DNA of 64,000 nt from a virus: IMG/VR virus record IMGVR_UViG_3300047476_002124, positions 4,133 through 68,132 of that record, one strand, 5' to 3'. Shown one piece after another: positions 2-64,000 of the stretch. The position numbers were made by a program, and so were the translations under genes. Each line of letters begins with the position of its first letter. Within the stretch, counting starts at the first letter, position 1. A model generated the notes under the pieces. That model had not been told where the DNA came from and did not search any database. It worked only from the letters and a program-made list of their open reading frames with translations.

Positions 2-1147
2 ACTAACACAGAAAAAATTAAAGATAAATTACAGGGTCGCTCTTGGACTTGGTATAAACCTCATCTAATAAAAGATGTTTTTACCCAACATCCTGATTGT
101 AGTCATGTTTTGTTTTTGGATATTGATGCGGTTTTCAGTACTGAAAATAGAAGAATTGAGGGGTTCATTGATGATACTGCCGATATCGTTATGACTAACG
201 ATTACGGACCTTCTTTGGTCAATGCTGGGGTTATGTTAGTCAAGAATACCGATTGGTCAAAAAATTTCATGGATGATTGGTGGAATATTTGTGAAGAATT
301 TCCGCAGTACAAAACAGGATTGTGGCATGACCAAACTTGCATTGGTTTTTTATACCAAAGAATTGACAGGTCTAAATTTAAAATTATTGATTATTCTGAT
401 TTAAATTCAAAAGATTATGATGAGAGTAAATTTGTTTTCCATGCCTTTGCTTATGGAATGCTACCCTATAGGACAATAGATGCAATCTATAATCGTAAGT
501 TTAACATCACCACAAACATCGACATGGGTTTAAATGAATTGGCAAAACATCATGGTACAGACAAATTTTATCACCACAATTATTACACAAGAGTTTACGA
601 AAATCTTTTTAGACCTTATAAAAAGTCTTGCGACATCCTGGAGATTGGGGTCTACTTTGGTTCTAGCATAAAAGTGTGGGATGATTTTTTCGATTCAGGT
701 CTTGTTCATGGTATTGATATAGAACCAAAAAATTTAGGTTATGGGAGAGTAGAGTGTTTCGTTGCCGACCAATCCAACCAAGAAAGTCTTAGGCAATTCT
801 CAGACTTAGGTCATCAATACGACATAATTGTGGATGACGGTTCACATAAAATGAAAGACCAACAGATAACTGTTCAATTACTTTTTAAAAATTTAAAAAG
901 TGGGGGGACCTTCGTTATTGAAGATTTACAAACCTCAATAGAATGTAGAATGCCTTCCAAAGTTATTTTTGGTTGGGGAGACCCAAATAAGACGACTTTT
1001 TTGGATATGATAGACAGTATCATTGCCGGCTCACCAAAAAGTGATTATATTACATCAGAATGGGATTATTTTATTTCAAATATTTCTGAAGTTTGGATAA
1101 GTAAAGATAGAGATGACTCTATAATCGCAACAATAAAAAAGAAATAA
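2..1147 (+). CDS. 5'-truncated fusion: GT34-like (MNN10/GMA12) glycosyltransferase + class I SAM-dependent (sugar O-)methyltransferase
   Basis: The frame is open from position 2 (TNTEKIK...SWTWYKPHLI...VLFLDIDA), so the TTG at 110 is not the true start. GT part: DxD motif (LDIDA), VNAGVMLVKN, WHDQ. MTase part: GTDK..HNY, ILEIGV..GSS, GIDI, DIIVDDGSH, LKSGGTFVIED. Confidence 0.75.
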   Translation, partial: TNTEKIKDKLQGRSWTWYKPHLIKDVFTQHPDCSHVLFLDIDAVFSTENRRIEGFIDDTADIVMTNDYGPSLVNAGVMLVKNTDWSKNFMDDWWNICEEFPQYKTGLWHDQTCIGFLYQRIDRSKFKIIDYSDLNSKDYDESKFVFHAFAYGMLPYRTIDAIYNRKFNITTNIDMGLNELAKHHGTDKFYHHNYYTRVYENLFRPYKKSCDILEIGVYFGSSIKVWDDFFDSGLVHGIDIEPKNLGYGRVECFVADQSNQESLRQFSDLGHQYDIIVDDGSHKMKDQQITVQLLFKNLKSGGTFVIEDLQTSIECRMPSKVIFGWGDPNKTTFLDMIDSIIAGSPKSDYITSEWDYFISNISEVWISKDRDDSIIATIKKK

Positions 1148-1148
1148 A

Positions 1149-2108
1149 ATGATTAGTATTGTATACCATTGTTTTTTGGTAGGAAATTGGAAAGAGGTTG
1201 TTACATCACAACTATTTAGACTAAAAAAATCAGGATTGTATGACAGAGCCGATTCTATCTACGTGACCATAAATTTATCGGAAGGAACTGAAGAAGAATT
1301 CAATGAAATCACAAAAGAATATGATAAACTAGAAAAAGAATTTTTCCCTAACAATGGTGCAGAATATCCATCTATAAAAAAAGTCAGGGAGATTGGTCTA
1401 TCCAAAGAGACAAAAATTCTCTATTTTCACACCAAAGGTGTTAGTAATAGGTACCGAAAATATCAATCGAATGAAATATCTGTTGATAAAATTAAAAATA
1501 TTGAGGCATGGAAAGAATGTTTGGAATATTTCCTTATTGACAGATGGGAAGAATGTATAAATAAAATGGACGAATATGATAACGTAGGAGTTACATGTAT
1601 TTTAGGATGGTTTTGGGGTAATTTTTGGTGGACACAGTCAAGACACGTAAAAAAAACTAAGGAAGTACAACATAGTACAAGATGGGCTTATGAAGCTTGG
1701 TTAAACGAAGGGGTTACTGATGTTAAAAACTATGAATGGTACAGATTTACATACAACCCGTATGTCACTAATATTGAAGAATCTTGGTATAAAGAACCTC
1801 CAAAATATGAAGGACAAAAAATTATTTTACACAAAGCAACGTATGGTTCCCCCAATTTTGACATAGATGAAGGATATTATGATTCCATATTAGGAGTTAC
1901 GAAAGAAGTAACTGAAGTTATCCAAAGATTTTTGGAAAAAGAAAATTTTCTTAGGTTTAATTTCAATGTGAACAATAATAGTATGGAAATTGACCCAATA
2001 CACATGTCAAAAAAATTTTTAATGTTAGAGTTTTCTCCAGAAAGTGACCCATCAAAAGTTTTCAAAATCGGTGCTCACGAAGGAATGACTTTAGACTTTA
2101 GATTTTAA
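1149..2108 (+). CDS. Putative glycosyltransferase-like protein with a C-terminal lectin-like domain
   Basis: LYFHTKGVS, GNFWW and RWAYEAWL motifs resemble GT-like proteins of large viruses. The C-terminus (ATYG...EVTE...NNNSMEIDP...KKFLMLEF) resembles galactose-lectin/DUF3395-type domains. Confidence 0.5.
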   Translation: MISIVYHCFLVGNWKEVVTSQLFRLKKSGLYDRADSIYVTINLSEGTEEEFNEITKEYDKLEKEFFPNNGAEYPSIKKVREIGLSKETKILYFHTKGVSNRYRKYQSNEISVDKIKNIEAWKECLEYFLIDRWEECINKMDEYDNVGVTCILGWFWGNFWWTQSRHVKKTKEVQHSTRWAYEAWLNEGVTDVKNYEWYRFTYNPYVTNIEESWYKEPPKYEGQKIILHKATYGSPNFDIDEGYYDSILGVTKEVTEVIQRFLEKENFLRFNFNVNNNSMEIDPIHMSKKFLMLEFSPESDPSKVFKIGAHEGMTLDFRF

Positions 2109-2139
2109 AAAATAAAAAAACATATAATTTTCAATTTGT

Positions 2140-4527
2140 ATGACCGATTATAAGAACGAGATAAAAATTTGGGACGAACATTCCAAGATGCACATACTCA
2201 ACGCAACATCTATTTTAATAAAAGAGCTCAAAAACAGACAGGACATAGTCATTGTGGATGTGGGGGCGAACAGTGGAACTTATTTTGATGAGTTGAGTAA
2301 GTCTTTGAAAGTGTCTCGAGCAATTTTATTTGAAGTTCAACCACAACTTTATTCTTACTTATGTGAAAAGTATAAAGATAAACCATACATAACTGTTGAA
2401 AATATTGCAATGTCCGATAGGGTTCAAGGGTTCGTATTGAACGACAGTGCATTCAAGTATGAAGTGGAAAATAGTGTAGGAACTCCCAATTACAATTTGG
2501 GGTTATCTAAAATTAACTACAATGAAAATTCCGAAATAAAGACAAATTATTTCGATAATATTAGGGATAGGTATAATTTAGATAGAATCGACCTTCTCAA
2601 AATTGATACTGAGACTGAAGATTTATTAGTATTGAAAGGGTTCACAGAAACAATCAAATCACTCAAACTAAAACCAATTATAGAATTTGAAAATAATTGG
2701 TGGGAAAAATACACATTAGAAGAATCACAAAAAATAGTTGATGATTTTTGTGCTCAATGTGGGTATATTAACGATATTGATTTAGAAAGAAGAGGAGACC
2801 ATTTTCTTTTTCCAATTACTGAAACTGTTGATGTTAATTCCGTAGATAGAAAAAATATTACAATTGTAACTGGTTTGTGGGATTTGAAGAGAGGTGATTT
2901 AGAAGGGTGGGCTAAAAGGGATTTTCAACATTATAAGAATAAATTTTTCGAATTATTGGAAACAGACATACCTATGTGTATCTGGATTCCTGAGGATTTG
3001 AAAGAAGAGGTTTTAAATATCAGGGGAAATAAACCAACAAAAATTTTCATAAAGAATGTTGAAGATTTCAAATCTTGGAACCCTTTTTTCGAGAAGATTC
3101 AAAGTATAAGAAACAACCCAAGTTGGAAAAATTTTGCCGGTTGGTTACCCGAATCTCCTCAAGCGGCTTTAGAATATTATAACCCAATGATGTTCACAAA
3201 GATGTTTATGTTAAACGATTCTGCTATAACTAATCCGTTCAAGACTGACTACTTTTTTTGGGTCGATGGTGGACTAACAAACACTGTGAGTAAGGGATAT
3301 TTTACAAAACATAAAGTTTTGAACAATCTTGAAAATTATGTTCTGAAGAACAATAGTAAGTTCCTTCATATTTCCTATCCATATGATGCAAATGAAGAAA
3401 TACATGGGTTCGAAAGGAAAGCTATGGCAAGATATTGTCAAACAGACTTTGTAAATTATGTATGTCGTGGTGGGTTCTTCGGAGGGCACACTGAAAAAAT
3501 AAATCAAATCAACGGATTGTATTATGGTGTAATGGAATCAACTCTAAAAGAGGGTTTGATGGGTGCTGATGAATGTCTTTTTACTATTTTAGCTCACAGA
3601 CATACAGATTTAATACACAGATTTGAAATTGAAGGTAACGGGTTAGTTTGGCCATTCTTCGAAGAATTGTTAAAGTATACCGAAATCGAACTAAAACAAG
3701 ACCAAACATTTCTAAATCCTTCTAACTCGGCGTTATATGTGATTGGATTCAATAGCCCAAAACAATTCGAAACTTTGATAAAATCAATGTATGATTATGA
3801 TGATGATTTTATAACAAAACCAAAAAAGTTTTTACTTGATAATTCATCTGATGAATCAACATTTGAAATGTATTCTGACTTGTGTAATAAACATGGTTTC
3901 GAACATGTAAAAAAAGATAATTTAGGAATATGTGGGGGTAGACAATGGGTTGCTGAACATGCCGATAATAACGGATTTGACTTTTATTTCTTTTTTGAAG
4001 ACGATATGTTTTTTTACAATGGAGAAAGCACAACTTGTAGAAACGGGTTCAACAGATACGTTAAAAACCTTTACAAAAACTCAATTGAGATTGCTCTAAA
4101 AAATAATTTTGATTTTGTGAAATTAAATTATACTGAGTTTTTCGGTGACAATGGAGTCCAATGGTCTTGGTATAATGTGCCTCAGCATATAAGAGAAAAA
4201 TATTTTCCAAACAAAACCAAGTTACCTGTTAAAGGATTAGACCCCGATGCTCCAAGAACAAAATACAATTCTATACGAACTTACAATGGTATACCATTTG
4301 TTGATGGAGAAATATATTATTGTAATTGGCCACAAGTAGTGACTCGTCATGGAAATAAAAAAATGTTTTTGGAAGAAAAATGGGCTCACCCATTCGAACA
4401 AACTTGGATGAGTTATATGTTCCAACTAACAACAAGGGGAGAGCTGAATCCAGGATTACTATTATTGACTCCAACCGAGCACAATAGGTTCGAACATTAC
4501 GAAGGAACTCTGCGTAAAGAATCATAA
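2140..4527 (+). CDS. Three-domain fusion: FkbM-family methyltransferase + HtrL/YibB (WlaTC)-like glycosyltransferase + GT-A/GT2-like domain
   Basis: FkbM: VDVGANSG, LLKIDTETED. HtrL-like: ITIVTGLWDLKR, NPFKTDYFFWVDGG, GGFFGG. GT-A: LLDNSS, DNLGICGGR, FFFEDD. Confidence 0.7.
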   Translation: MTDYKNEIKIWDEHSKMHILNATSILIKELKNRQDIVIVDVGANSGTYFDELSKSLKVSRAILFEVQPQLYSYLCEKYKDKPYITVENIAMSDRVQGFVLNDSAFKYEVENSVGTPNYNLGLSKINYNENSEIKTNYFDNIRDRYNLDRIDLLKIDTETEDLLVLKGFTETIKSLKLKPIIEFENNWWEKYTLEESQKIVDDFCAQCGYINDIDLERRGDHFLFPITETVDVNSVDRKNITIVTGLWDLKRGDLEGWAKRDFQHYKNKFFELLETDIPMCIWIPEDLKEEVLNIRGNKPTKIFIKNVEDFKSWNPFFEKIQSIRNNPSWKNFAGWLPESPQAALEYYNPMMFTKMFMLNDSAITNPFKTDYFFWVDGGLTNTVSKGYFTKHKVLNNLENYVLKNNSKFLHISYPYDANEEIHGFERKAMARYCQTDFVNYVCRGGFFGGHTEKINQINGLYYGVMESTLKEGLMGADECLFTILAHRHTDLIHRFEIEGNGLVWPFFEELLKYTEIELKQDQTFLNPSNSALYVIGFNSPKQFETLIKSMYDYDDDFITKPKKFLLDNSSDESTFEMYSDLCNKHGFEHVKKDNLGICGGRQWVAEHADNNGFDFYFFFEDDMFFYNGESTTCRNGFNRYVKNLYKNSIEIALKNNFDFVKLNYTEFFGDNGVQWSWYNVPQHIREKYFPNKTKLPVKGLDPDAPRTKYNSIRTYNGIPFVDGEIYYCNWPQVVTRHGNKKMFLEEKWAHPFEQTWMSYMFQLTTRGELNPGLLLLTPTEHNRFEHYEGTLRKES

Positions 4528-4543
4528 CAATATATTTATTGTT

Positions 4544-4921
4544 ATGGAATTTTTTATTAAAAAGAATGCATCCCTTCCAATTTTGAAAATGCAAGTTGTT
4601 AAAGACGGAAGGTCAGGATATCAACAATTGATGGAAGATTTAGAAGTATCTTCTATATACTTCTCTATGGTAGACACAACCAATGGGATACCTAAAATAA
4701 TTGATGCTCCTTGTGGTATTGTACCAATATACCTGCCTGCCGGCTCACCCCCTGAATATTATATTTATTTCCAATTTAATTCAAGAGATACTAATACAGT
4801 TGGTAGATATAAAGGTGAGTTTTTAATTAAGAATGACGAAGGAAACTTAATTTTACCTTTAAGAGAAGAGATTTATATAAACGTCCAAGACAGTTTTTCT
4901 GCTATCGACCCTTGTTGTTAA
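4544..4921 (+). CDS. Probable virion protein, BppU N-terminal-like Ig domain
   Basis: FFIKKNASLP at the N-terminus and YFQF...DTNTVGRYKGEFLI...LP...IYINV; preceded by a TATTTAT motif. Confidence 0.45.
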   Translation: MEFFIKKNASLPILKMQVVKDGRSGYQQLMEDLEVSSIYFSMVDTTNGIPKIIDAPCGIVPIYLPAGSPPEYYIYFQFNSRDTNTVGRYKGEFLIKNDEGNLILPLREEIYINVQDSFSAIDPCC

Positions 4922-4922
4922 T

Positions 4923-7792: not shown

Positions 7793-7795
7793 AAT

Positions 7796-26769: not shown

Positions 26770-27092
26770 TGGGATTTCCTTATTACAATAGATACTCGAC
26801 TTTCCTAATTAATGGTGAACAGACGGTGGTTCCTTATGTTACTGTTCCAAATAAAACTAGTGACAAAACCTATATCTATAAAGTAGGTAGAAGTAGATTA
26901 GATAAAGTATCACAAGAATTTTATGGTACCCCATATTTCGGATGGTTGATATTACAAGCAAATCCGCAATTTGGTGGTTTAGAAAATTATATTTATGACG
27001 GTGCGATATTGACAATTCCTTTTCCGCTTATACCATCTTTACAGGATTATAAAGGTGCTCTAGAAAATCATTTCTATTATTATGGCAGATAA
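26769..27092 (+). CDS. LysM-like baseplate protein (T4 gp53 / P2 gpX-like)
   Basis: RLDKVSQEFYGTPYFGWLILQANP...GAILTIP. Confidence 0.8.
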   Translation: MGFPYYNRYSTFLINGEQTVVPYVTVPNKTSDKTYIYKVGRSRLDKVSQEFYGTPYFGWLILQANPQFGGLENYIYDGAILTIPFPLIPSLQDYKGALENHFYYYGR

Positions 27093-51182: not shown

Positions 51183-51966
51183 GTTTATATTAAGACAAGG
51201 ATTCTTTACTGACAAAGAACTAACGATACCTATCGAAGGTAAGTGGGATTTTGAAGGTATTGATGATGCAATTGACCAATATGAGCAAAATGCAATCAAA
51301 GAGGTTTTAGGTGGTGGATATGATTTTGAGGTTGATAGATTCCCACATGCACAACATAGTGGAAGTAGTAGAACAGATATAAATTATGAATTTTTCTTTT
51401 TCTCAGGGGGTAATTTGAGTTCACCTTCTGAATGGAGAAATACATACATCAGCGAATCTTTTACAGTACAAGATGTTTTTTATTATTCCGACAGCTTCGC
51501 TAAATCTTTTTTTAAACTAGACTTTTACGATACGGTAGATGAAAAAAATCAAAAAAATTATTTCACGATAATAATACCTACACAACAGGGTGAGTTTATG
51601 GATATAAACATGGCTAGAACCCCAGTCAGAATAAGAAAACCAAAATTCAAATTAGATTATATTGGAGATAAAGAAGGGTTTTTTATTTATTGGTTGAAAA
51701 GTTTGGAATTCATTCCTTTGAATACTTTCTACATGACGGCTAAGTTCTATAATGCAAAGACAGGAACTTTCACCAAAATGTTAAACAAACCACAATCGAC
51801 AATAAACAACAGTAACAAATTTATATTCGATAACATAGATTATTTCTATTACAGAGTAGTTTTAGATTACATTAATATACAATATATTGTTTATGACTTA
51901 CAAGGTAATAGAGTGGGTACAACAAGTACCATAAAATGGTATGAATACGTTAACCCTCCACAATAA
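51169..51966 (+). CDS. Putative virion structural protein
   Basis: 265 aa, translationally coupled; SFFKLDFYDT and FYMTAKFYNAKTG motifs. Confidence 0.55.
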   Translation: MGANKFILRQGFFTDKELTIPIEGKWDFEGIDDAIDQYEQNAIKEVLGGGYDFEVDRFPHAQHSGSSRTDINYEFFFFSGGNLSSPSEWRNTYISESFTVQDVFYYSDSFAKSFFKLDFYDTVDEKNQKNYFTIIIPTQQGEFMDINMARTPVRIRKPKFKLDYIGDKEGFFIYWLKSLEFIPLNTFYMTAKFYNAKTGTFTKMLNKPQSTINNSNKFIFDNIDYFYYRVVLDYINIQYIVYDLQGNRVGTTSTIKWYEYVNPPQ

Positions 51967-53045
51967 TGAGTGATTTATATAAAATAAGAATTTCGCCAGA
52001 AACTATAGTTGGTGATTTGTCTGAGGTTACTTATAGCGGACAAACATTTGGAGTATATTCAGCAATGACACAAGTTGTTAGTTCTGGACCTAATGGAAGT
52101 TCTTCACTAACAGGATTGACGATACCTATACTATTGAAACAAACATCACTCGATGCGGGTTATTATAGTCCATTTGATGGTGCAATATACCAAAAAGATG
52201 TGGTGACAAATTTTTTAGTTTCCGCGAATACAGTCAACCCATATACAATAAATTTATATAACACTTCGGAACAATATCAAAAGTTTATCGAGCTATCATC
52301 ATATAGTGTTGATTGGGGTGACGGAACTAAAGAGTCGATAACGGCATTCACACCAAACTATATTTCACATACATACCCAACATCAAATCAAGAATATACT
52401 ATCACATTATCACAGATTAATCCTTGGGGTAAAATTATTGTTGAAAAACCAATACGAACTCCTTACAAGACACCTGTAATATATAACCCTAAGGGGAGGG
52501 TATTTTTTCAACCTAATGTAGGAAGTTGGTCTGCAACACCTGTAAGTTATGACTATATATTCACAGGGGACCAGTACAATGAAGTTTCATATCAAGTGTC
52601 TTCTACATTTGGTAATGTTCCTTTCACAGTATCAGGAGAAACAAAATCAAGAATTACAGAACTCAGTCAGTATGGACCCACACCCTACAAAGTAGGTGTA
52701 CCTGTAATAAAAAACAGACAAGTTTTCGGTGTTGTAAATTCAATCACTCCAATATTCACAGCCTATACAATACAGGACGTGGATTATTATGATTATAAAG
52801 GTGGATTGACAATATATTTTGTTCAATCTTCAGGGTTCACGGAAGAAAATATTACGGAAGTTCCAATTACAAAAGACGAACTTCTTTTGAAAATAACTGA
52901 CCAAGGACAGATACAGACAGATGTTTTTGTGGAAAGAGGAAAAAATAGTGCTTTCGAAAGAATACAAAGATTAGGGGAGATAGATAATTTAGGAGATTTA
53001 ATTAACTATGGATATGGATTTTTTAACGTTGAAAAAAAGACATAA
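51966..53045 (+). CDS. Virion protein with PKD-like domain
   Basis: YSVDWGDGT...SHTYP...YTITL PKD signature; C-terminal DVFVERGKNSAFE. Confidence 0.6.
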   Translation: MSDLYKIRISPETIVGDLSEVTYSGQTFGVYSAMTQVVSSGPNGSSSLTGLTIPILLKQTSLDAGYYSPFDGAIYQKDVVTNFLVSANTVNPYTINLYNTSEQYQKFIELSSYSVDWGDGTKESITAFTPNYISHTYPTSNQEYTITLSQINPWGKIIVEKPIRTPYKTPVIYNPKGRVFFQPNVGSWSATPVSYDYIFTGDQYNEVSYQVSSTFGNVPFTVSGETKSRITELSQYGPTPYKVGVPVIKNRQVFGVVNSITPIFTAYTIQDVDYYDYKGGLTIYFVQSSGFTEENITEVPITKDELLLKITDQGQIQTDVFVERGKNSAFERIQRLGEIDNLGDLINYGYGFFNVEKKT

Positions 53046-56954: not shown

Positions 56955-59086
56955 TGGCACAATTCGATTATACAATATTAGTCACGGGAGATTGTCAAAG
57001 TAACCTTGGAGGGTCTATAAGTATATTACCTTTTGGAGGTACACCTCCTTATACCGTTGAGTGGACAACACCTAATTTAGGGTCAGATATTTTAACTATT
57101 TTACCTTCCATAAGAAGTGGACTAGCTAGTGGTACTTATGCCGTTAGATTGAACGACTCCACTCTACCAATAAACAACGAGTTTTTTGTGAATATACCAG
57201 TGTCGGATGGAGTTTGTGTGACAATAGATGATTCTAATGGAACGACATGTGGATTAAATAATGGTTCGATAACAGGAAGTTCATCAACAGAATATTCTTC
57301 AGCATCTTTTTATCTTTATAGTGGTACGGGAGAATTAGTAACGTCAGCGGTCACTAATACAGATACTATAGTATTTTCCAATCTGACAGCAGGTACTTAT
57401 AATGTTGCGGTATTGGATTTAGGGGGATGTACTGGATTCAGTGAAACTATAGTAATTGAAGATTCATCTCAATTTGATTACGGTCTTTATATAGTACCCA
57501 ACTCAAGTTGTGGGGATAGTTTTTTAGGTAAGATTTACGTCACGGGAGAAACAGGTCCGTCCCCATACACATATTTGTGGAGTAACGGACAAACAACAAG
57601 TTACATAACTGGTCTAACCGAAGGTAGTTATTCGGTCACAGTTACAAATGCGGATGGGTGTGTTGTGAGTAAAGGTGCTGAAGTAACGAGAGTACAACCC
57701 GTAGGGTTCGGAAATTTTGTGGTCACACAACCAACATGTTTTTCTAATGATGGGGTTCTTACAATGACAATTACTGGAGGAACTGCACCATTTTATTATT
57801 CAGCAAGTACAGGTGATTTTGCAATATCATATTCAACAACTTACAGTATATCAGGACTTACACCAGGTCAAATAAGTATAAAAGTGACTGATTCAGGGTT
57901 CTGTACATTCACAGAAACAACACAACTTGTAACTCCTAATGGTATGAGTTCTGTATCGATTACGGGTAGTAATTCTACATGTTCGAATACAGATGGTTCG
58001 ATTTTGGTTTCGGTTCAAGGAGGCTCAACACCTTATACGTATACTTTGATTAATCCTACCGGAGACACAGACGTGGTGTCAAATAATAATACAACACAGG
58101 AGTTTACAAATCTGACCGCAGGAACTTATTCTGTCTTTGTGGAAGACAGTTCAGGGTGTTCGTATAATGATGAAATAACTTTAATCACAGAAAATAAATT
58201 TACAATATCAACACAAATTACTGGCTCAACCTGTGGTCTAAACAACGCTACGGTCGAGGTTTTGAAATCTACAGGTGGTACAGAACCTTTTGATTATATT
58301 TTGGACGGGACAAGCCAGATAATTGATACTACTCAATCGGCTGTCACGTTTACAGACGTAAGTCAAGGAAATCACACCGTTTCAGTAGTTGATGCCGACG
58401 GATGTACACAAACTACAAATTTCTTCATAAGTTATTCTGAGCCAATTTCATATAGTTTATATTCTAACTCATGTGGAACAGGTAACGAAGGTAGCATAAC
58501 TGCATTCATTTCATCGGGAGTTCCTCCATTTACTTTTTATTGGTCTGAAAACGTGCCCAACAATCCACAAGAAATAGCTGTAACAGGATTGACTGCAGGT
58601 ACATACAGTGTAACTATTGTAGATAGCACAGGATGTTCATTGAGTAGAACAACTGATTTAGTCTGTAGTCAGAGTTTCATTTCATACCAACTTTATACAA
58701 TGGGACAGGAAGAATTCCAACTTCAGTCAGGTACCAAATGTGGCCTGTTACAAATGTTGAATGAAGGATTTGTGGATTTGACATCGGTGAACGAAGGATG
58801 TGTTCTGAATTCTGCGGTATTCATTGCAAAAGTAAGTGTTGACCCTACAGGTCTTACATACACAAATTCATTCTATACTGCAACTACATTGAATCAGGCA
58901 CCTTCGGATAATTTATGGTATAATACATTGACAAGTTTACTTACATCAGTACCAGGAATTCAATCTGTTACAATAGATGCTTTGAGTAATAAAATTACAA
59001 TACAAACTACTGTGGGAGGACCACTAAACAATCAAATTATAACGGTTGATGTCTTAATAGAATATGACATCACATGTAGACAATGA
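56954..59086 (+). CDS. SprB-repeat-containing fibre/adhesin-like virion protein
   Basis: Start likely at the ATG at 56954 (TAATG coupling). About seven repeats of the form TC..N.GSI...GGT.PY.Y.W...GL.AG.Y.V.V.D..GC. Confidence 0.75.
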   Translation: MAQFDYTILVTGDCQSNLGGSISILPFGGTPPYTVEWTTPNLGSDILTILPSIRSGLASGTYAVRLNDSTLPINNEFFVNIPVSDGVCVTIDDSNGTTCGLNNGSITGSSSTEYSSASFYLYSGTGELVTSAVTNTDTIVFSNLTAGTYNVAVLDLGGCTGFSETIVIEDSSQFDYGLYIVPNSSCGDSFLGKIYVTGETGPSPYTYLWSNGQTTSYITGLTEGSYSVTVTNADGCVVSKGAEVTRVQPVGFGNFVVTQPTCFSNDGVLTMTITGGTAPFYYSASTGDFAISYSTTYSISGLTPGQISIKVTDSGFCTFTETTQLVTPNGMSSVSITGSNSTCSNTDGSILVSVQGGSTPYTYTLINPTGDTDVVSNNNTTQEFTNLTAGTYSVFVEDSSGCSYNDEITLITENKFTISTQITGSTCGLNNATVEVLKSTGGTEPFDYILDGTSQIIDTTQSAVTFTDVSQGNHTVSVVDADGCTQTTNFFISYSEPISYSLYSNSCGTGNEGSITAFISSGVPPFTFYWSENVPNNPQEIAVTGLTAGTYSVTIVDSTGCSLSRTTDLVCSQSFISYQLYTMGQEEFQLQSGTKCGLLQMLNEGFVDLTSVNEGCVLNSAVFIAKVSVDPTGLTYTNSFYTATTLNQAPSDNLWYNTLTSLLTSVPGIQSVTIDALSNKITIQTTVGGPLNNQIITVDVLIEYDITCRQ

Positions 59087-61005
59087 CACAAGTAAGAATT
59101 GATACCATAACTGGGGTTAGTTATCCTATAGACATATACGTTGCTGACGTATACGGTAATAATAGGACATATTTAGCGACCGTTGTTAGTGGACCCGTTC
59201 CTCCAGAATTGGCTTATACAACACTACCGCCTCTTTTTGATAATGCTCCTGCGGTAATGATAATTGTACTCGATGCTAACAATTGTGAAAAATTTGAAAT
59301 AGTTCCATGTACCGTACCATCAACACCAACCCTAACACCAACCCCAACAGTTACATCAACACCAACCCTAACACCAACTCTAACATTAACTCCAACACTT
59401 ACATCTACACCAACTTTAACCCAAACGCCTACACTTACTCTTACACCAGGATTGAGCCCAACTGTGACACCTACACTAACAAGTACCCCAACCGTTACAC
59501 CAACACAATCCGTAACACAAACAAATACACCAACACCATCTGCAACTCAAACAAGTACACCAACAACAACACCAACCCTAACACCAACTCAAACACTAAC
59601 ATCAACACCAGCAAATACACCAACGCAAACACCAACTCAAACAGAATCTGCAACCCCAACCCCAACATCAACACAAACACCAACTCTAACAGAGTCTGCG
59701 ACCCCAACTCCAACACCAACTTCTTCACCAACACTAACACCTACATTGACCACAACTCCAACGGTAACACCAACACCATCCGCAACACCGGCAGTAATTA
59801 CGTTTGCTTATTTAATAATGGATGTAAATACCGTAGCGCAAAGAAACGAATTGGCAACATACATGTTAAGTCAAGGAAGTACTTGGGGTGGATTCAATAT
59901 CGGTAATCCTTTAGGTGCGTTAGGTGATAGCCCATTAGATGTCACTACACCAGCTGTATCAACAGGTGCCGCTGGAATGCCTAACTCACCGGCAATAACT
60001 ACGGCTACAAACGGAGATGTTATTGTTTCTCTTGGATTCTTAGATGACGAAGTGGTTGCTTCATCAGTGACTGCACCAGCAGGATACACTTTAATCGGTG
60101 CTGCACAATATGGTATTATAGAAAATGGTGCAACTGTGATGGCGGCATTTACACAACAAGCCACTGCAGGAGCAACCAATCCTGGTGCTTTCGGTGGTGC
60201 AGGTACAGATGCATGGGTTGGTTCAACATTTGCATTAAGACCTGTAGCGGGAACTATACCACAAATTTCATACGTAGGTCAAACACAATCAATAACTACA
60301 ACCATAACCTTACCAACAGGTCTACAAGAAAACGACTTGGTAATTATAGCAAGTGCTAGTGATGCTACTGCACAAACAATACCTGCGGGATATACTAATG
60401 GTCAGAATGGAAACCAAGGAGTACAGTACAGGTGGTCTTACAAATTTATGGGAGCAACCCCTGACACTACAGCAACAGGATTGGCAGCAAACTCTGTACA
60501 TATTGCATTTGCGTTCAGAGGAGTAAGTGGTCCTATTGTTGCTCAAACAAACTTTAACAATAGATTTAATTCATACATTAGTTACTCAGGATGGGGAGGA
60601 ACCCAACCTGCAATACTAAGTGCACCAATATCCAACGTTTCTGCAGGAGTAGATGCGTTCGGAGTACCAGTTGTTGCAGGAAGATTCCAAACAACCGAGG
60701 TATCAGGGGCCACTCTACCTGTTACAGGTGGTCAAAGTCCACAAGCTTGGTATACATGGTTCGTTCCAACAGGAGCAACACCAGGTCAGGCATACACTGC
60801 AATATCAATGAGTAGAAACTCTGCAACACAACAAGAAATTGGTGCGACCTTGAACTTCTACAATAGAGTTGTTAATTATACAGGAACAACTATACCGGCA
60901 GGATACTATAGAGTTTATACTTCATATTCTCAGAATGGACTTAGACCAAGACTAAATGGACAAAGTTTCTACTTTAGAGGTGGAAATACTAGAGTAAATG
61001 TGTAG
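59083..61005 (+). CDS. Fibre/appendage protein with long Pro/Thr mucin-like linker and C-terminal beta domains
   Basis: N-terminal anchor-like domain (PIDIYVADVYG...DANNCE), about 160 aa (TP)n stalk, then Ala/Gly/Thr-rich globular domains. Confidence 0.7.
   Translation: MTQVRIDTITGVSYPIDIYVADVYGNNRTYLATVVSGPVPPELAYTTLPPLFDNAPAVMIIVLDANNCEKFEIVPCTVPSTPTLTPTPTVTSTPTLTPTLTLTPTLTSTPTLTQTPTLTLTPGLSPTVTPTLTSTPTVTPTQSVTQTNTPTPSATQTSTPTTTPTLTPTQTLTSTPANTPTQTPTQTESATPTPTSTQTPTLTESATPTPTPTSSPTLTPTLTTTPTVTPTPSATPAVITFAYLIMDVNTVAQRNELATYMLSQGSTWGGFNIGNPLGALGDSPLDVTTPAVSTGAAGMPNSPAITTATNGDVIVSLGFLDDEVVASSVTAPAGYTLIGAAQYGIIENGATVMAAFTQQATAGATNPGAFGGAGTDAWVGSTFALRPVAGTIPQISYVGQTQSITTTITLPTGLQENDLVIIASASDATAQTIPAGYTNGQNGNQGVQYRWSYKFMGATPDTTATGLAANSVHIAFAFRGVSGPIVAQTNFNNRFNSYISYSGWGGTQPAILSAPISNVSAGVDAFGVPVVAGRFQTTEVSGATLPVTGGQSPQAWYTWFVPTGATPGQAYTAISMSRNSATQQEIGATLNFYNRVVNYTGTTIPAGYYRVYTSYSQNGLRPRLNGQSFYFRGGNTRVNV
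59311..59793 (+). repeat. Degenerate ACACCA-type coding repeat (Thr-Pro linker)
   Basis: TPTLTPTPTVTSTPT... over about 480 bp, strongly A/C skewed. Confidence 0.9.
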
Positions 61006-61035
61006 TTAAAAACTAAATAAAAATATTTATAAGAA

Positions 61036-63621
61036 ATGCCGATAGACGAAACTAATTCATTACCGATTATCAACTATGGAGGAGATGATAATTACCTAGA
61101 GATGGGTAATGATGGTCTTATTACCTTCCAAGGAGTAGGACCGTTAGTTCCGTTACCACCAACCAATGACGGTATCACTTGGGACGTTTATAATATTGGT
61201 GGTTACATGTCAGTTAATTATCTTTCTGACTTACTTTTTACGATACCATCAGGGACAACAGGTGAAATCGTTGATATTAATACAACTATACCAATTGATT
61301 TCGATTATTTTGACCCTATAGGGTTTCCCAATGTAATTCACCTCAATAATGATGGAATCTCCTCAGGTAGAAGAAAGGTTGGTATGCTTGTTTATGTTGC
61401 GGAAACTAATAAAGTTTATCAATATTCATTTGAGAATTATTCTCAGTTATATACAGATGCTTTAGCTTCAGGAGCACTTTATGAGTTTTATTCAGAATTT
61501 ACATATCCAACAGACCCTCCAGGTACTAAAGAAATTATTAATTCGATAGAATGTAATTCAAGTACACCTGAAGGATTGGCGTTTATAGAAGCGTGGACAG
61601 GAAATACAATCGAGGGTATAGATGGAGTGTCAAGAGATGATGCTAAGTGGAAGATATTTCCTCTAGACATTTACATAACCGGAGGAACTTATTTTAGTGC
61701 AACATCTACTCTAGATTTATATAATAATACTGGAGGAACAATAAGTGTTACCGGTTTAACTACAACCACACCTCTTACAATATCAAGTGGAGGTACATTA
61801 GTTGCGTCTGGTGTGACATCAATAGATTTTGAAGGTTCAGGTTTCACAGTGACTGCAACTGGAACCTCTGTAACACTAAGTTTCAGTGGAGGTACTGGTA
61901 ATTCAGGTTCGAGTGGTACATCAGGTACCAGTGGAGTTGACGGTGTTTCAGGAACTTCTGGTACATCAGGTACCAGTGGAGTTGACGGTGTTTCAGGAAC
62001 TTCTGGTACATCAGGTACCAGTGGAGTGGATGGCGTTTCAGGAACTTCTGGTACATCAGGTACTAGTGGAGTGGATGGCGTTTCAGGAACTTCTGGCACA
62101 TCAGGCACTAGTGGTGTTGATGGTGTTTCAGGAACTTCTGGTACATCAGGCACTAGTGGTGTTGATGGTGTTTCAGGAACTTCTGGTACATCAGGAACAA
62201 GCGGTTCTTCAGGAACTGATGGTAGTTCTGGTTCATCAGGTAGTTCAGGTACATCTGGTTCTTCGGGAACAAGCGGTAGTTCAGGAACTGATGGTAGTTC
62301 TGGTTCATCTGGTTCGAGTGGAACATCTGGTTCTTCAGGAACAAGCGGTAGTTCAGGAACTGATGGTAGTTCTGGTTCATCAGGTTCATCAGGTAGTTCA
62401 GGTACATCTGGTTCTTCAGGAACAAGCGGTAGTTCAGGAACTGATGGTAGTTCTGGTTCATCAGGTAGTTCAGGTACATCTGGTTCTTCAGGAACAAGCG
62501 GTAGTTCAGGAACTGATGGTAGTTCTGGTTCATCAGGTAGTTCAGGTACATCTGGTTCTTCAGGAACAAGCGGTAGTTCAGGAACTGATGGTAGTTCTGG
62601 TTCATCGGGTTCTAGTGGAACATCTGGTTCTTCAGGTAGTTCAGGAACAAGTGGCAGCTCAGGTTCATCTGGTAGTTCTGGCTCATCAGGAAGTTCTGGT
62701 ACAAGTGGTTCTTCAGGAACTAGCGGTAGTTCAGGAACAAGCGGAACCTCTATAAAACTTTCGGGAAGTTCAGTGACTTGTATTTCACTCCCCCTTAATA
62801 TTTGTGTCACACTAACTCCGACCGTCACTTTACAGTTGAGTGATACCCCTACACCAACACCTACTCCTACCCCAACCCCAACTGAAACTCTACCAATACC
62901 AACCCCAACACCAACTACGGCACAAACGGCTTATTTGAATTTATGTCTACCAGACGTAGTGCCTCCGAGTGGAATAGTTGAATGGTGTTTCTATTCGCAA
63001 ACAAGTACTGACTGTAATAGTGAGAGGATTAATGTAGACCAAACAGTAGGGTTAAATTATGACATATATCTCTGTGTACCACCATATGGTCCTGGAGATT
63101 GTGCTTCGATTTGTTCTGGTTACGTTACATTGAGTGCTGGAACAAGTTGTAATTGTTCATTATATTGTGATGCAACAGGAAGTGAAGGACTTGTTATATC
63201 GGCACAAACAATCGGTGGAATTTTCCCAACACCTACAGGTAGTTCAATAAATTATCAAATTGGAAATATATGTTACAGTGGTTGTTCAGGTTGCACAACC
63301 CCAACTCCAACACCAACTGAAACTCTACCAATACCAACTCCAACACCAACACCAACTGAAACTCTACCAATACCAACTCCAACACCAACTCCTGTGAATT
63401 GTGATTGTTACAGATTCCAAAACGAGACAATTACGTCGGATGATATAACTTATACTAATTGTTCTGGTGTTGAGGTTACGATAACAATGTCACCATCAGA
63501 GATACAATATAAATGTGTGAGAAGTGGAACTTCTATTACAACCGCAACTATAACATATGTTCCGTGTACAAGCCCTACGTCTTGTACAGACGATACAAAT
63601 TGTTCTGGATGTAGTTTTTAA
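61036..63621 (+). CDS. Fibre-like protein with Gly-X-Y (Ser/Thr) repeat, Pro/Thr linkers and Cys-rich C-terminal domains
   Basis: [10 protein letters not shown] motif, about 285 aa with Gly at every third residue (GTS/GSS/GVD/GTD), (TP)n linkers, many Cys in the C-terminus. Confidence 0.75.
61895..62750 (+). repeat. Hierarchical coding tandem repeat: six 45-bp units ([15 protein letters not shown]) then six GTDG units about 72 bp apart, on a 9-bp base period
   Basis: GVDGV occurs 6 times. ACTGATGGT occurs at about 62215, 62287, 62359, 62440, 62512 and 62584 (spacing 72/72/81/72/72). Confidence 0.92.
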
Positions 63622-63637
63622 AATATGAAAAAATAAA

Positions 63638-64000
63638 ATGGAATTACAAACACCATATTGTCCGATAACTATAACAGCCTCAACAGGAATGGATTTTGTT
63701 GTAGGAAGTTTCATTCAATTAACGTATGATGTTAATAATTTCATTTTAGCACAAGTCGATTCTTATGACCCAAATACAGGTGTATTAACCTTTACTCCGT
63801 ATTATTATGAAGGTTCTGGTAATTATTGTGATTGGCAAATATCGTTAGCGGGATTAGGTGGAACCTCAGGTTCATCAGGAAGTTCTGGCACAAGTGGCTC
63901 ATCAGGTTCTAGCGGTAGTTCTGGTACGTCTGGCTCATCAGGAAGTTCTGGCACAAGTGGTTCTTCAGGTTCTAGTGGAACATCTCTGTCTCATATACAA
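63638..64000 (+). CDS. 3'-truncated second Gly-Ser-Thr repeat fibre protein (not in ORF track)
   Basis: Manual translation MELQTPYCPITITASTGMDFVVGSFIQLTYDVNNFILAQVDSYDPNTGVLTF...[24 protein letters not shown]...; open to the end of the window. Confidence 0.8.
   Translation, partial: MELQTPYCPITITASTGMDFVVGSFIQLTYDVNNFILAQVDSYDPNTGVLTFTPYYYEGSGNYCDWQISLAGLGGTSGSSGSSGTSGSSGSSGSSGTSGSSGSSGTSGSSGSSGTSLSHIQ

Follow-up and report, generated by a model that had tools for sequence, protein, structure and literature searches.

A glycosyltransferase and methyltransferase cassette next to the DNA polymerase gene

The window, the whole 64,000-nt stretch of viral DNA analysed here, opens within a cassette of glycosyltransferase (GT) and methyltransferase genes that adjoins replication genes. 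The gene for a homologue of the GT60 family (PF11397) lies 117 nt before the window (3.3e-67; score 227.9 bits, cut-off 21), and the genes that follow are:

2..1147, + strand: GT-methyltransferase fusion, last 381 of 418 residues (gene start 110 nt before the window, L001:4023)
1149..2108, + strand: 319-aa protein, in the variable stretch of the cassette (only an Atlas lead, to viral DUF8361-type clusters at 0.95-0.98)
2140..4527, + strand: 795-aa core enzyme, conserved partner of GT60 (Pfam, NCBIfam)
4544..4921, + strand: conserved small protein of 125 aa, located between cassette and DNA polymerase gene (73 of 80 loci have a homologue)

In the GT60 homologue, D93-S94-H95 and 154 of 421 positions are invariant across 63 sequences including those of XacN1 and Xoo-sp13, and about 120 conserved residues follow the Pfam domain. 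The fusion protein has an N-terminal GT-A domain of the GT34/DUF273-like type (Pfam Glyco_transf_34 3.5e-14 and DUF273 1.4e-11 for the full protein), with a PDB phmmer match to the GT domain of PBCV-1 A64R (2p6w, 1.5e-4). Its C-terminal domain resembles SAM-dependent sugar O-methyltransferases (TylF 8ia9, 3.2e-19; MycF 3ssm, 6.1e-16), and the protein also matches a PHROG methyltransferase (1.5e-22). This gene is accessory, being present in 4 of 80 relatives; the 319-aa protein has no Pfam, PHROG or NCBIfam match and no homologue in any of the 80 related loci. The 795-aa protein, with a homologue in 78 of the 80 loci, combines an FkbM-type methyltransferase (aa 40-209; Methyltransf_21 3.9e-10, fkbM_fam 4.5e-16), an HtrL/YibB-like putative glycosyltransferase (aa 239-494; HtrL_YibB 6.2e-14) and a conserved C-terminal domain (aa about 500-795) whose Atlas lead is to viral HtrL/GT2-type clusters. 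Pfam and PHROG searches gave no family match for the 125-aa protein. The window thus holds at least three GT-like domains and two methyltransferases, as originally predicted, with an Atlas lead as the sole basis for one of the GT-like domains.

The GT60 homologue and the other cassette proteins are soluble, none containing a stretch of sufficient hydrophobicity for a membrane helix (maximum 19-residue Kyte-Doolittle hydropathy 1.09). Identity of GT60 is 82-89% in the best 80 loci, against about 70-82% for the tail sheath in most. From GT60 to the polymerase gene the cassette spans 3.7 to 9.0 kb across relatives, with differing GT and methyltransferase sets, a variability that fits a fixed initiating enzyme with variable decoration.

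Thr/Pro-rich tracts travel with the GT60 gene

Thr/Pro-rich tracts, of which the original prediction made no mention, travel with the initiating enzyme in phages and bacteria. By a tract criterion defined for this analysis, the ORF directly before GT60 carries a Thr-Pro tract in 53 of the 56 related loci with at least 2.5 kb of upstream sequence, and collagen-like triplets in one more; the ORF itself changes among relatives and may be as short as 180 or as long as 1104 aa. As a base rate, tract ORFs stand at 17% in GT60 loci, 7.2% in fibre-region loci and 0.7% around the sheath. Because the phage relatives form one lineage, the adjacency in 54 of 56 loci is largely inherited synteny.

Upstream sequence was available for nine bacterial loci (Cytophagales, Bacteroidia, Gemmatimonadota and others). 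In five of these, GT60 has a Thr/Pro-rich ORF as its neighbour; in a sixth the neighbour is S/T/P-rich but fails the strict criterion, and the remaining three have no Thr/Pro-rich ORF next to GT60. Chance is hard to invoke for this adjacency, since the 12 bacterial loci contain five strict tract ORFs in all and every one of them lies right beside GT60. Several of these bacterial neighbours look exported; in L300, inspection by eye points to an N-terminus of twin-arginine-like type and a C-terminal end of T9SS type. In XacN1, no tract ORF adjoins GT60. Tract ORFs number 3 of 35 in our contig, 15 of 245 in XacN1 and none in Mel-JY01, immuto or T4. The pairing of GT60 with an HtrL-like protein likewise persists in 78 of 80 related loci from phages, in 8 of the 12 from bacteria, and in XacN1 and Xoo-sp13; in the latter three groups the HtrL and C-terminal parts lie beside GT60 at 35-58% identity. 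Thr-Pro linkers are, in general, widespread without known glycosylation.

Structural and fibre-like proteins of the window

The original prediction started from the motif [S/T]-[G/A]-x-[S/T], commonly preceded by a hydrophobic residue, in virion proteins. The proteins that matter most for the motif and for the tracts are:

13774..16968, + strand: tail sheath, 1064 aa (PHROG tail sheath 3.4e-56)
27082..33843, + strand: 2253-aa structural-region protein; modest motif excess, clustered near the C-terminus
51966..53045, + strand: 359-aa protein (unk359), downstream of gp25/gp6-like baseplate genes; strongest per-residue motif excess outside the fibres
56945..59086, + strand: SprB-repeat protein SprB713, 713 aa (Pfam SprB 7.6e-22, 3 stretches)
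59083..61005, + strand: 640-aa fibre-region protein (unk640); mucin-like Thr/Pro stalk, candidate O-glycan acceptor
61036..63621, + strand: 861-aa collagen-like fibre protein (Pfam Collagen 5.8e-40; PHROG tail fibre down to 2.6e-37); candidate acceptor
63638..64000, + strand: second collagen-like protein, start only, cut by the window end (Pfam Collagen 5.2e-07)

The stalk of unk640 comprises 158 residues (aa 79-236), with 71 T, 34 P and 15 S, and its strict tracts lie at nt 59311-59790. The 861-aa protein contains 96 uninterrupted Gly-X-Y triplets (aa 285-572), X being T, S or V and Y being S or D, as well as two Thr-Pro tracts (nt 62836-62895 and 63295-63369). Fifteen further triplets, of the G-[ST]-S type, occupy aa 72-116 of the second collagen-like protein. 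The Gly-X-Y run accounts for 71 of the 91 motif matches in the 861-aa protein, and the non-collagen parts hold 20 in 573 aa. Fibre repeats that had been taken for the motif in polymerised form are collagen Gly-X-Y repeats, with a period of three and not four. PT878, unk640 and the collagen-like proteins are putative virion parts, judging from their position and from PHROG fibre matches driven by the collagen repeats. The tube protein is not Ser/Thr-rich, and the capsid gene is not on this contig.

The motif is enriched in some structural proteins

All 29 distinct pentamers quoted in the original prediction are present, FTGTT twice in the 572-aa protein. The names given to the proteins are less exact than the sequences: the 'hub' (the 2253-aa ORF at 27082-33843) and 'gp15' (a 347-aa ORF) have no family match. 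The 'PKD protein' corresponds to the 359-aa ORF at 51966-53045 and 'gp7-like' to a 991-aa ORF.

Motif counts were compared between a structural set of 20 proteins (13,079 aa, two collagen proteins left out) and 18 non-structural or unassigned proteins (6,487 aa). The structural set contains 81 matches against 48.4 +/- 6.5 in whole-protein shuffles, a number attained in 0 of 500 shuffles, and against 45.5 or 47.0 when residues were shuffled locally (40- or 20-residue); the other set contains 8 against 8.2 expected. The excess in the structural set is thus real. The raw densities, 0.62 versus 0.12 per 100 aa, differ five-fold, but composition alone predicts about 0.37 versus 0.13, so that the raw gap is mostly composition plus a further 1.7-fold excess. 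The rarity in the polymerase, helicases, exonuclease and RNR reads similarly: 2 matches occur, in line with the 3.5 expected from composition.

The order of residue classes is specific, the six positional permutations giving observed/expected ratios (O/E) of 0.92-1.37 and residues other than G/A at position 2 giving 0.71-1.22. When all 411 [class][class]x[class] patterns with an expectation of at least 10 were scanned without preselection, [ST][GA]x[ST] ranked first (z 5.1), and with the hydrophobic prefix the structural set has 46 matches against 15.6. The excess is nonetheless uneven. It is seen in SprB713 (21 vs 7.1), unk359 (8 vs 1.4), the sheath (12 vs 5.4), unk991 (6 vs 1.9) and the 2253-aa ORF (11 vs 5.5), but half of the structural proteins have none, among them by shuffle counts the 1668-aa ORF (3 vs 6.0), the gp6-like protein (0 vs 1.6) and unk640 (6 vs 8.4); the tube, the gp25-like protein and unk302 have no match at all. 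SprB713 contributes more to the excess than any other protein, as its repeated domain carries the motif in recurring columns. Leaving out SprB713 lowers the motif to rank 6 of 410 (60 vs 40.6); leaving out unk359 as well lowers it to rank 26 of 402 (52 vs 39.4; z 2.0). The original observation is thus confirmed in part: the motif is genuinely, though unevenly, characteristic of some beta-rich outer domains in this phage lineage.

Motif sites lie at strand ends and hairpins

Among 98 sites, position -1 is hydrophobic in 59% (background 35%), +2 in 42% and +4 in 47%; at -1, fewer residues are charged than in the background (7% vs 19%), and proline is scarce (2-6%) from -1 to +4. The usable structural models place motif sites at beta-strand ends or hairpins. 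An insertion in the sheath (aa about 110-420) carries 8 of its 12 sites, and the model of this region, with block pLDDT of 63-90 save for three 10-residue blocks at 39, 49 and 59, puts sites at strand ends, in hairpin turns and in mid-strand. Seven sites fall in blocks with pLDDT of at least 63. Of these, five occupy a strand, a strand end or a hairpin turn, another is found where a helix passes into a strand, and the last is in a loop immediately ahead of a strand. For unk359 the model is of low quality (pLDDT 47); its more reliable parts show ITAFT at the end of a strand and FTAYT within one. In SprB713 at least 13 of the 21 matches fall into three recurring columns of the internally repeated domain (L-T-A-G-T-Y / I-[ST]-G-L-T; V-x-D-[ST]-[ST]-G-C-S; [IV]-T-G-[GE]-T-x-P), which we take to be part of the SprB family consensus.

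Motif S/T residues are retained more than other S/T, at 0.91 versus 0.62 over 50 orthologues of unk359 and 0.81 versus 0.73 in the sheath, where 10 of the 12 sites each persist in a majority of 45 orthologues; one sheath (L046, 59% identical) has lost most of the insertion-domain sites. Hydrophobic neighbours, scarce proline and positions at strand ends or hairpins together match what the original prediction itself had named as a refuting outcome, motifs explained as beta-turns. The hydrophobic-[ST]-[GA]-x-[ST] pattern is most probably structural, marking a beta-strand end or tight hairpin, and not a glycosylation sequon. Because hairpin turns tend to be exposed and the motif sites show conservation, the sequon reading keeps a low probability.

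Motif enrichment does not follow the cassette

For counts across genomes, 'ST-rich' ORFs, by a criterion defined for this analysis, served as a proxy for structural proteins. These ORFs contain 90 matches against 46.4 expected in our contig. XacN1, which is GT60/HtrL-positive, shows no enrichment (114 vs 132.7), whereas the GT60-negative Mel-JY01 does (81 vs 50.8, rank 4 of 416); two other GT60-negative phages, immuto and T4, have 140 versus 118.5 and 45 versus 44.2. Mel-JY01 carries GT1- and GT2-family genes and is therefore not a GT-free control. The expected co-occurrence of motif enrichment with the GT cassette is accordingly absent. The hydrophobic-prefixed form is enriched only in our contig (50 vs 14.9; O/E 0.81-1.43 in the four comparison phages) and is thus not a general feature of phage structural proteins.

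A candidate protein-glycosylation module for fibre stalks

With about even confidence, we favour a combined view in which the motif is a structural signature and a separate protein-glycosylation module acts on fibre stalks. That the phage would carry such a module is suggested by the family memberships, solubility, conservation and gene neighbourhoods described above; from these we infer which sugar is donated, what accepts it, in what order the steps run and that the tract proteins belong to the virion. GT60 would act in the cytoplasm, before the virion is assembled or as it forms, putting the first sugar (GlcNAc, by family) on Thr/Ser of the Thr-Pro 'mucin-like' stalks of fibre-like proteins and possibly also on their Ser/Thr-rich collagen-like triplets. 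The glycan would then be lengthened by the conserved HtrL-like enzyme and capped with O-methyl groups by methyltransferases of the FkbM and TylF-like kinds. Variation would come from exchangeable accessory genes, in this phage those for the A064R-like GT fused to a methyltransferase and for the 319-aa protein.

An unlikely alternative is that the cassette remodels a host envelope glycan (LPS, capsule or surface glycoprotein), for example to block superinfection, with the Thr-Pro tracts as flexible linkers. HtrL/YibB, FkbM, GT10-like and CmcI-like enzymes are typical of LPS/O-antigen gene sets, cassette content differs between close relatives, and the exported-looking bacterial neighbours suggest that the GT60 family may serve surface proteins in cells; in a passage of a jumbo-phage review, the variable GT clusters of cyanophages are read as polysaccharide-modifying (PMC7824862). 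However, characterised GT60 members use polypeptide acceptors, the cassette proteins lack a membrane segment, GT60 is more conserved than the sheath, and a tract-bearing upstream ORF is kept in 54 of 56 loci though the ORF changes.

It is improbable that GT60 modifies one regulatory or host protein, as Gnt1 does Skp1, the Thr-Pro neighbours being passengers of the fibre-gene region. A cytosolic GT60 member with a single substrate does exist and XacN1 lacks a tract ORF beside GT60, but Thr/Pro-rich adjacency recurs in Gemmatimonadota, Cytophagales, Bacteroidia and the phage lineage.

We give still less weight to the original model as a whole, in which hydrophobic-[ST]-[GA]-x-[ST] is the acceptor sequon for a methylated O-glycan over sheath, baseplate periphery and fibres. 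Several results speak for it: the top rank and order specificity of the motif, including G/A at position 2, the 3-fold enrichment of the prefixed form in this phage and not in four others, the conservation of motif S/T, and an excess that is strongest in the probably outermost proteins (PT878 with 18 vs 4.3, SprB713, unk359 and the non-collagen fibre parts). Cytoplasmic glycosyltransferases that recognise strand-loop-strand elements, such as the autotransporter heptosyltransferases, also count in its favour. Against this, enrichment is absent from XacN1 despite the same GT60 and HtrL-like pair and present in GT60-less Mel-JY01, half of the structural proteins show no excess, and removal of two proteins lowers z as described. 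Hydrophobic flanks, scarce proline and strand edges are unlike GT27/GT60-type acceptors, many SprB713 sites are repeat columns, sheath L046 has lost most insertion sites, and the collagen period is wrong. The proposed interpretation is therefore supported in part. A methylated O-glycan made by a soluble GT and sugar-methyltransferase set is reasonable for virion appendages, because the nearest characterised relatives (GT60 polypeptide GlcNAc-transferases, chlorovirus A064R and TylF/MycF sugar O-methyltransferases) act on proteins or protein-bound glycans; a coat over sheath and baseplate finds no support. More probably, the sugar-adding enzymes decorate Thr-Pro and collagen-like fibre stalks rather than motif sites.

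The least probable reading is that these enzymes glycosylate modified bases and so hypermodify the phage DNA, as happens in T-even phages and TET-associated systems. In its favour, the cassette immediately precedes the DNA polymerase gene in 73 of 80 loci and is close to that gene in XacN1, the 795-aa protein has weak similarity to TAGT (E 0.01, below cut-off), 3 of 5 large relatives have a thymidylate-synthase-family gene, and phage GTs that assemble glycans on DNA are described in bioRxiv 10.1101/2023.12.21.572611. Against it, the strongest family matches are to enzymes directed at proteins or glycans. The ThyA-like protein is similar to T4 td (5e-40) and not to the dCMP hydroxymethylase gene (0.066), and it keeps the PFNIASY/PPCH motifs typical of dUMP-specific enzymes. 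A search run without a positive control gave no Tet/JBP match in the 5 relatives (42-61% complete), and bacterial chromosomes have the same GT60 and HtrL-like pair next to Thr/Pro-rich ORFs.

Comparison with known systems

The closest counterparts of the favoured stalk-glycosylating module are the protist CAZy GT60/PF11397 enzymes (T. cruzi mucin enzyme, Dictyostelium Golgi and cytosolic Skp1 enzymes). A section of PMC8724618 describes GT60 members as polypeptide alpha-GlcNAc-transferases that start mucin-type O-glycans on Thr-rich domains, the cytosolic one acting on Skp1, and an excerpt of PMC3769586 has the T. cruzi enzyme using the peptide KPPT8KPP. The phage enzyme shares the invariant D-x-H and is soluble like the Skp1 enzyme; where the protist acceptors are Thr-rich mucins, Thr-rich, proline-flanked tracts are encoded next door in the phage. 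The phage version differs in being a prokaryotic virus gene with about 120 extra conserved residues, and in its partners, which are HtrL-like, FkbM and TylF-like proteins rather than the GT2/GT74/GT77 enzymes of the Skp1 pathway.

The accessory fusion recalls A064R, a GT-GT-methyltransferase that finishes the PBCV-1 capsid glycan (a passage of PMC9614988). Both are viral multidomain enzymes with a GT-A domain of GT34-like fold and a sugar-methylating domain, directly linked by the weak 2p6w match; A064R has three domains against two here and, as described there, acts in an alga on N-linked glycans of an algal-virus capsid protein, whereas the methyltransferase here is TylF/MycF-like and the gene accessory (4 of 80). 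Mycobacteriophage-encoded transferases likewise decorate the phage's own virion proteins (Freeman et al. 2023), with glycans placed by a section of PMC12619734 at the C-termini of capsid and tail-tube subunits; the enzyme families differ from ours, and so does the acceptor type, the candidates here being stalks of fibre-like proteins.

The collagen-like region of Bacillus exosporium BclA is densely O-glycosylated with a short glycan that ends in an O-methylated sugar, according to PMC10050317 and PMC6222408. The 96 Ser/Thr-rich Gly-X-Y triplets found here together with sugar methyltransferases resemble that arrangement, which is cellular, not viral, and uses other enzymes; the phage collagen-like proteins may be glycosylated in a comparable way. 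For the motif itself, the nearest likeness is to the SprB/Ig-like beta-sandwich repeats of Bacteroidota surface proteins, to which SprB713 belongs by its Pfam match and in which the motif occupies fixed columns such as L-T-A-G-T-Y-x-V.

A GT60-led cassette in a jumbo-phage lineage

The window runs from base 4133 to base 68132 of a viral contig 68,132 bp long (G+C 32-41%), and a tRNA search of it found no tRNA genes. Its replication set is T4-like, with a family B polymerase, SNF2 and DnaB helicases, a gp32-like SSB, a UvsX-like recombinase, a 5'-3' exonuclease and a class II RNR. The contractile-tail module encodes sheath, tube, gp25-like and gp6/J-like baseplate proteins, an SprB-repeat protein and collagen-like fibres, together with several very large proteins without a family match. 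Cultured relatives are remote, the sheath of Microcystis phage Mel-JY01 (PP395634.1) being 33% identical over 62% of the query; related stretches in IMG/VR number 611 for the sheath, 536 for GT60 and 326 for unk359, a 359-aa window ORF. Since relatives of 146-183 kb have an estimated completeness of only 42-61% and orthologues of SprB713, the 713-aa SprB-repeat protein, lie on contigs of up to 324 kb, the virus is taken to be a jumbo phage of roughly 300 kb. Two further genes of the window were noted in passing:

Window 11063-11461, minus strand: SET-domain protein of 132 aa (Pfam SET, 1e-13), separating the SNF2 helicase gene from the structural genes
Window 19836-21722, plus strand: 628-aa protein whose residues 457-549 match tape-measure (7.2e-16) and endolysin (1.6e-10) PHROGs

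SET is a protein-lysine-methyltransferase fold and is unusual in phage; the 628-aa protein possibly sits inside the tail and bears a lytic domain.

The cassette preceding the DNA polymerase gene consists of the following three genes, a 795-aa protein (window 2140-4527) that joins an FkbM methyltransferase to an HtrL/YibB-like domain and a conserved C-terminal domain, and the 125-aa unk125.

Contig 2751-4016, just outside the window: GT60 homologue of 421 aa (PF11397, 3.3e-67)
Window 2-1147, first gene of the window: GT-A domain fused to a TylF/MycF-like sugar O-methyltransferase, recognized by phmmer
Window 1149-2108, plus strand: unk319, resembling Atlas clusters with DUF8361 that are common to tailed phages and Nucleocytoviricota (scores 0.95-0.98, a lead only)

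The GT60 homologue scores 227.9 bits against a cut-off of 21, and its best stretch covers profile positions 96-350 of 352. It is 45-49% identical to its counterparts in the two Xanthomonas jumbo phages XacN1 and Xoo-sp13, and D93-S94-H95 and 154 of the 421 residues are invariant in 63 sequences that include both. We take D-S-H to be the GT-A metal-binding D-x-H/D-x-D motif, a role known from the GT27/GT60 literature. Members of GT60 are characterized in PMC8724618 as polypeptide alpha-GlcNAc-transferases, which in Dictyostelium and T. cruzi begin mucin-type O-glycans on domains rich in Thr, and PMC3769586 gives the acceptor peptide KPPT8KPP. The family is defined by a UDP-GlcNAc donor and an alpha-linkage to Thr, Ser or Hyp of a polypeptide; for the phage enzyme the pertinent evidence is context, the Thr-Pro tract ORFs beside its gene. 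The GT-A domain of the fusion matches 2p6w, the solved structure of the chlorovirus capsid-glycan transferase A64R, weakly over residues 7-159 (phmmer, 1.5e-4); A064R of PBCV-1 has three domains, GT-GT-methyltransferase (PMC9614988), whereas the window enzyme has two, GT-A and a TylF-like methyltransferase. The neighbouring unk319 may represent one more transferase domain, shared by the glycan kits of phages and giant viruses. An NCBIfam search of the cassette contributed nothing beyond these assignments.

Among 80 related loci, which were chosen by GT60, the 795-aa protein recurs in 78, unk125 in 73 and the polymerase in 73, the A064R-like gene in 4 and unk319 in none. The interval between GT60 and the polymerase varies from 3.7 to 9.0 kb across related loci, and in one relative it holds GT1-like, GT10-like, FkbM and CmcI-like genes instead. 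The presumed initiating enzyme is fixed and the decorating enzymes are variable. Such a set could also serve to remodel the host envelope, a use that we consider unlikely; none of the cassette proteins contains a hydrophobic segment of membrane-helix length.

Thr-Pro tracts accompany GT60 in phages and bacteria

As initiating enzyme, GT60 would act on Thr-Pro tracts and not on the [ST][GA]x[ST] motif of the original prediction. Three proteins of the contig carry candidate acceptors of this kind. The collagen-like fibre has two Thr-Pro tracts besides 96 Gly-X-Y triplets at aa 285-572 (Pfam Collagen, 5.8e-40); its repeats had been regarded as the motif in polymerised form, which fails because the 96 triplets, the source of the motif matches in the fibre proteins, are uninterrupted and have a period of three, not four. 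In the 640-aa unk640 a stalk of 158 residues includes 71 Thr and 34 Pro, and PT878, the 878-aa protein encoded before GT60, ends in Thr-Pro tracts. A PT878 homologue is kept in 39 of the 80 related loci. In the 56 related loci with sufficient upstream sequence, the ORF immediately preceding GT60 carries a Thr-Pro tract in 53 and collagen-like triplets in one, at lengths of anything from 180 to 1104 aa. Among ORFs near GT60 17% have a tract, as compared with 7.2% in the fibre region and 0.7% around the sheath.

Counted per genome, tract ORFs are 3 of 35 in our contig and 15 of 245 in XacN1, and whole-genome counts gave none in the comparison phages Mel-JY01, immuto and T4. Within XacN1 (AP018399.1, 249342-261711), ORF369, ORF370 and ORF372 are large hypothetical proteins with Thr-Pro tracts that adjoin the tail sheath and tail completion genes, which places tract proteins in the tail module of that GT60-positive phage too. 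No Thr/Pro-rich ORF adjoins GT60 itself in XacN1.

A GT60 scan of 185,579 species genomes yielded 12 bacterial loci, independent of the phage lineage. An HtrL-like partner with the C-terminal domain adjoins GT60 in eight of the 12, and a carbamoyltransferase stands between the two in two Cytophagales, as it does in XacN1. Nine loci have upstream sequence: the immediate neighbour of GT60 is a Thr/Pro-rich ORF in five (Jiulongibacter, Arcticibacterium, a Bacteroidia MAG and two Gemmatimonadota), a third Gemmatimonadota neighbour is S/T/P-rich and falls below our own tract criterion (hence 5-6 of nine overall), and three have no Thr/Pro-rich neighbour. The recurrence of such neighbours in unrelated genomes is the strongest argument for Thr-Pro tracts as the GT60 target. 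That GT60 has instead a single non-stalk substrate is decidedly improbable on this showing; the precedent for it is a cytosolic GT60 member that glycosylates Skp1 (PMC8724618).

The bacterial loci have features of their own. PqqD is the peptide-binding element of RiPP pathways, and in the Gemmatimonadota loci L305, L306 and L309 the Thr/Pro-rich ORF directly upstream of GT60 begins with a PqqD-like domain (1.1e-07 to Pfam PqqD in L306); in L305 and L309 it is preceded by a P-loop ORF that looks HPr-kinase-like by eye. GT60 may be part of a peptide-modification cluster in Gemmatimonadota. The Thr/Pro-rich proteins of the Bacteroidota loci L300, L303 and L310 are encoded divergently from GT60 and have twin-arginine-like N-termini; those of L303 and L310 share a conserved C-terminal domain, the end of the L300 protein resembles a T9SS sorting domain, and all three may be exported glycoproteins. 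A further PF11397 paralogue in L303 is shorter (3.1e-34). In Cytophagales, Bacteroidia and Gemmatimonadota, the occurrence of GT60 and its HtrL-like partner next to Thr/Pro-rich proteins suggests a bacterial protein-glycosylation system that has yet to be described.

The [ST][GA]x[ST] motif exceeds composition unevenly

All 29 pentamers quoted in the original prediction are present in the sequence. With the two collagen proteins tallied separately, the motif occurs 81 times in 20 structural proteins against 48 expected, and whole-protein, 20-residue and 40-residue block shuffles agree; none of 500 shuffles reached 81, so the excess over composition is borne out. The 18 other proteins hold 8 matches against 8.2 expected. 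Because the motif had been chosen after the data were seen, all 411 comparable three-class patterns were scanned, among which it ranked first in the structural proteins (z 5.1). Permuting the positions of these residue classes yields no enrichment (O/E 0.92-1.37); at position 2 only G/A is favoured, and O/E rises to about 3 when a hydrophobic residue precedes the motif.

The excess is unevenly spread over the virion proteins. It is concentrated in SprB713 (21 against 7.1) and unk359 (8 against 1.4) and moderate in the sheath, unk991 (991 aa), a 2253-aa ORF and unk572 (572 aa); the shuffle comparison gave none for the 1668-aa ORF, the gp6-like protein, unk640, the tube, the gp25-like protein and unk302. 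Virion glycosylation of the mycobacteriophage type is associated with C-terminal extensions bearing Ser/Thr on the capsid and tail-tube subunits; here the tube (162 aa) is 6.2% Ser and 5.6% Thr, and the capsid gene lies off the contig. Removal of SprB713 lowers the motif to rank 6 of 410 (60 against 40.6), and removal of unk359 as well lowers it to rank 26 of 402 (52 against 39.4, z 2.0). At least 13 of the 21 matches in SprB713 fall in three recurring columns of its repeated domain, which shuffling does not model. As for a cellular SprB control, the best 120 of 3029 homologues of SprB713 were all phage orthologues. Two other patterns are over-represented to a like degree in all window structural proteins, namely [DE][VILM]x[KR] (55 against 28.7, z 5.0) and [P][ST]x[ST] (43 against 21.1, z 5.0), the latter because of the Thr-Pro tracts. 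A top-ranked short pattern can come from repeated domains and strand-edge preferences.

Flanking residues were tallied at 98 motif sites. The residue is hydrophobic at -1 in 59% of them (background 35%), at +2 in 42% and at +4 in 47%. At -1, charged residues are rarer than in the background (7% against 19%), and proline stays at 2-6% from -1 to +4. AlphaFold2 models were built from 41 alignment rows for the sheath (mean pLDDT 42.4, usable only at residues 110-420) and 42 rows for unk359 (mean pLDDT 47.4). Blocks of the sheath insertion domain (110-420) have pLDDT 63-90 except three at 39, 49 and 59, and seven of its eight motif sites lie in blocks of at least 63 within a poor overall model. 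In the model, five of these seven occupy a strand end, a hairpin turn or the middle of a strand; of the other two, one sits where a helix gives way to a strand and one in a loop immediately preceding a strand. In the better-modelled parts of unk359 (pLDDT 47 overall), ITAFT lies at a strand end and FTAYT within a strand. Ser/Thr retention at motif positions is 0.91 against 0.62 in unk359 (50 orthologues) and 0.81 against 0.73 in the sheath (45 orthologues). A related phage sheath that is 59% identical (locus L046) has lost most insertion-domain sites, and the Mel-JY01 sheath is without the insertion domain. Both a structural motif and an acceptor would account for the conservation and the hairpin position, which are thus not decisive.

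Motif enrichment does not follow the transferases

Whether the motif follows TRANSFERASES was examined in five genomes by comparing ORFs that reach both 150 aa and 15% Ser+Thr; ORFs below 150 aa, those of 13-15% Ser+Thr and those with at least six consecutive Gly-X-Y triplets were left aside. Observed and expected matches were 90 and 46.4 in our contig, 81 and 50.8 in Mel-JY01 (O/E 1.60), 140 and 118.5 in immuto (1.18), 45 and 44.2 in T4 (1.02), and 114 and 132.7 in XacN1 (0.86). XacN1 has both GT60 and the HtrL-like partner, and GT60 was not found in Mel-JY01, immuto, T4 or the uncultured record LR756508. The expected association is not seen in these five genomes: enrichment is absent from XacN1, which represents the one further lineage with this enzyme pair, and present in Mel-JY01, which lacks GT60 and has other glycosyltransferases.

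In Mel-JY01, where GT60 and Thr-Pro tracts are both absent, the motif ranks 4 of 416 in the Ser/Thr-rich ORFs (81 against 51), and it may be a broader feature of that branch of T4-like phages. Of its 155 ORFs that reach 150 aa, 110 were scanned against Pfam, leaving out those that exceed 900 aa, have at least 16% Ser+Thr or span a piece boundary (2 ORFs); the scan found Glycos_transf_1 and Glycos_transf_2 genes. Having GT1- and GT2-family genes, Mel-JY01 is not a glycosyltransferase-free control. The hydrophobic-prefixed form is enriched in our contig only (50 against 14.9; O/E 0.81-1.43 in the other phages), which domain content may explain in part, not fully. We regard the motif as very unlikely to be an acceptor sequon, and it is best read as a structural signature.

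Discussion

The proposal of sequon-directed virion glycosylation is confirmed in part as an observation and supported in part as an interpretation. As far as sequence can tell, a glycosylation system in this phage is plausible but directed elsewhere than at the motif. Highly improbable is the use of the transferases on phage DNA. Base-glycosylating systems, T-even or TET-associated, pair a GT of a DNA-modifying family with a base hydroxymethylase or TET/JBP. The TAGT profile match in the cassette (E 0.01) is below the cut-off, and the ThyA-like protein of a relative resembles T4 td, not the dCMP hydroxymethylase gene (gene 42). A Tet_JBP search run with no positive control found no match in five incomplete relatives or in the control genomes, and says little about absence. 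The thymidylate-synthase-family protein of the relative (368 aa; G005:C1:147256-148338, L298) has an apparent insertion of about 100 residues with respect to T4 td.

A coat in two tiers would combine mucin-type chains that GT60 starts on stalks of the Thr-Pro and collagen-like kinds with glycans that one of the accessory glycosyltransferases places on hydrophobic-[ST]-G-x-[ST] hairpins. Targets of this second tier would be conserved hairpins of the sheath insertion domain, unk359, and SprB-type and LamG-type proteins. Such a coat is scarcely to be expected; if real, it would involve a sequon defined by structure as well as sequence, a kind of which no phage example is described.

To return to GT60 acting on Thr-Pro tracts, our literature search on GT60 with phage and on PF11397 found no paper tying either to phages or bacteria, nor one on a methylating phage module that is headed by GT60 and adjoins Thr-Pro stalk proteins. 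If it operates as proposed here, an abundant freshwater jumbo-phage lineage, with more than 500 related contigs in IMG/VR, sugar-coats its own appendages, and the widespread Thr-Pro 'linkers' of phage fibre proteins would acquire a function. In its chemistry the module would be homologous to the first step of mucin-type O-glycosylation in protists, with a fixed initiating enzyme and swappable methylating and extending enzymes. That a virus can encode the glycosylation of its own particle is established for chloroviruses and mimiviruses (PMC9614988) and, according to citing papers, for mycobacteriophages. Phage virion glycosylation, so far shown in mycobacteriophages, would thereby gain another enzyme family and another type of acceptor.
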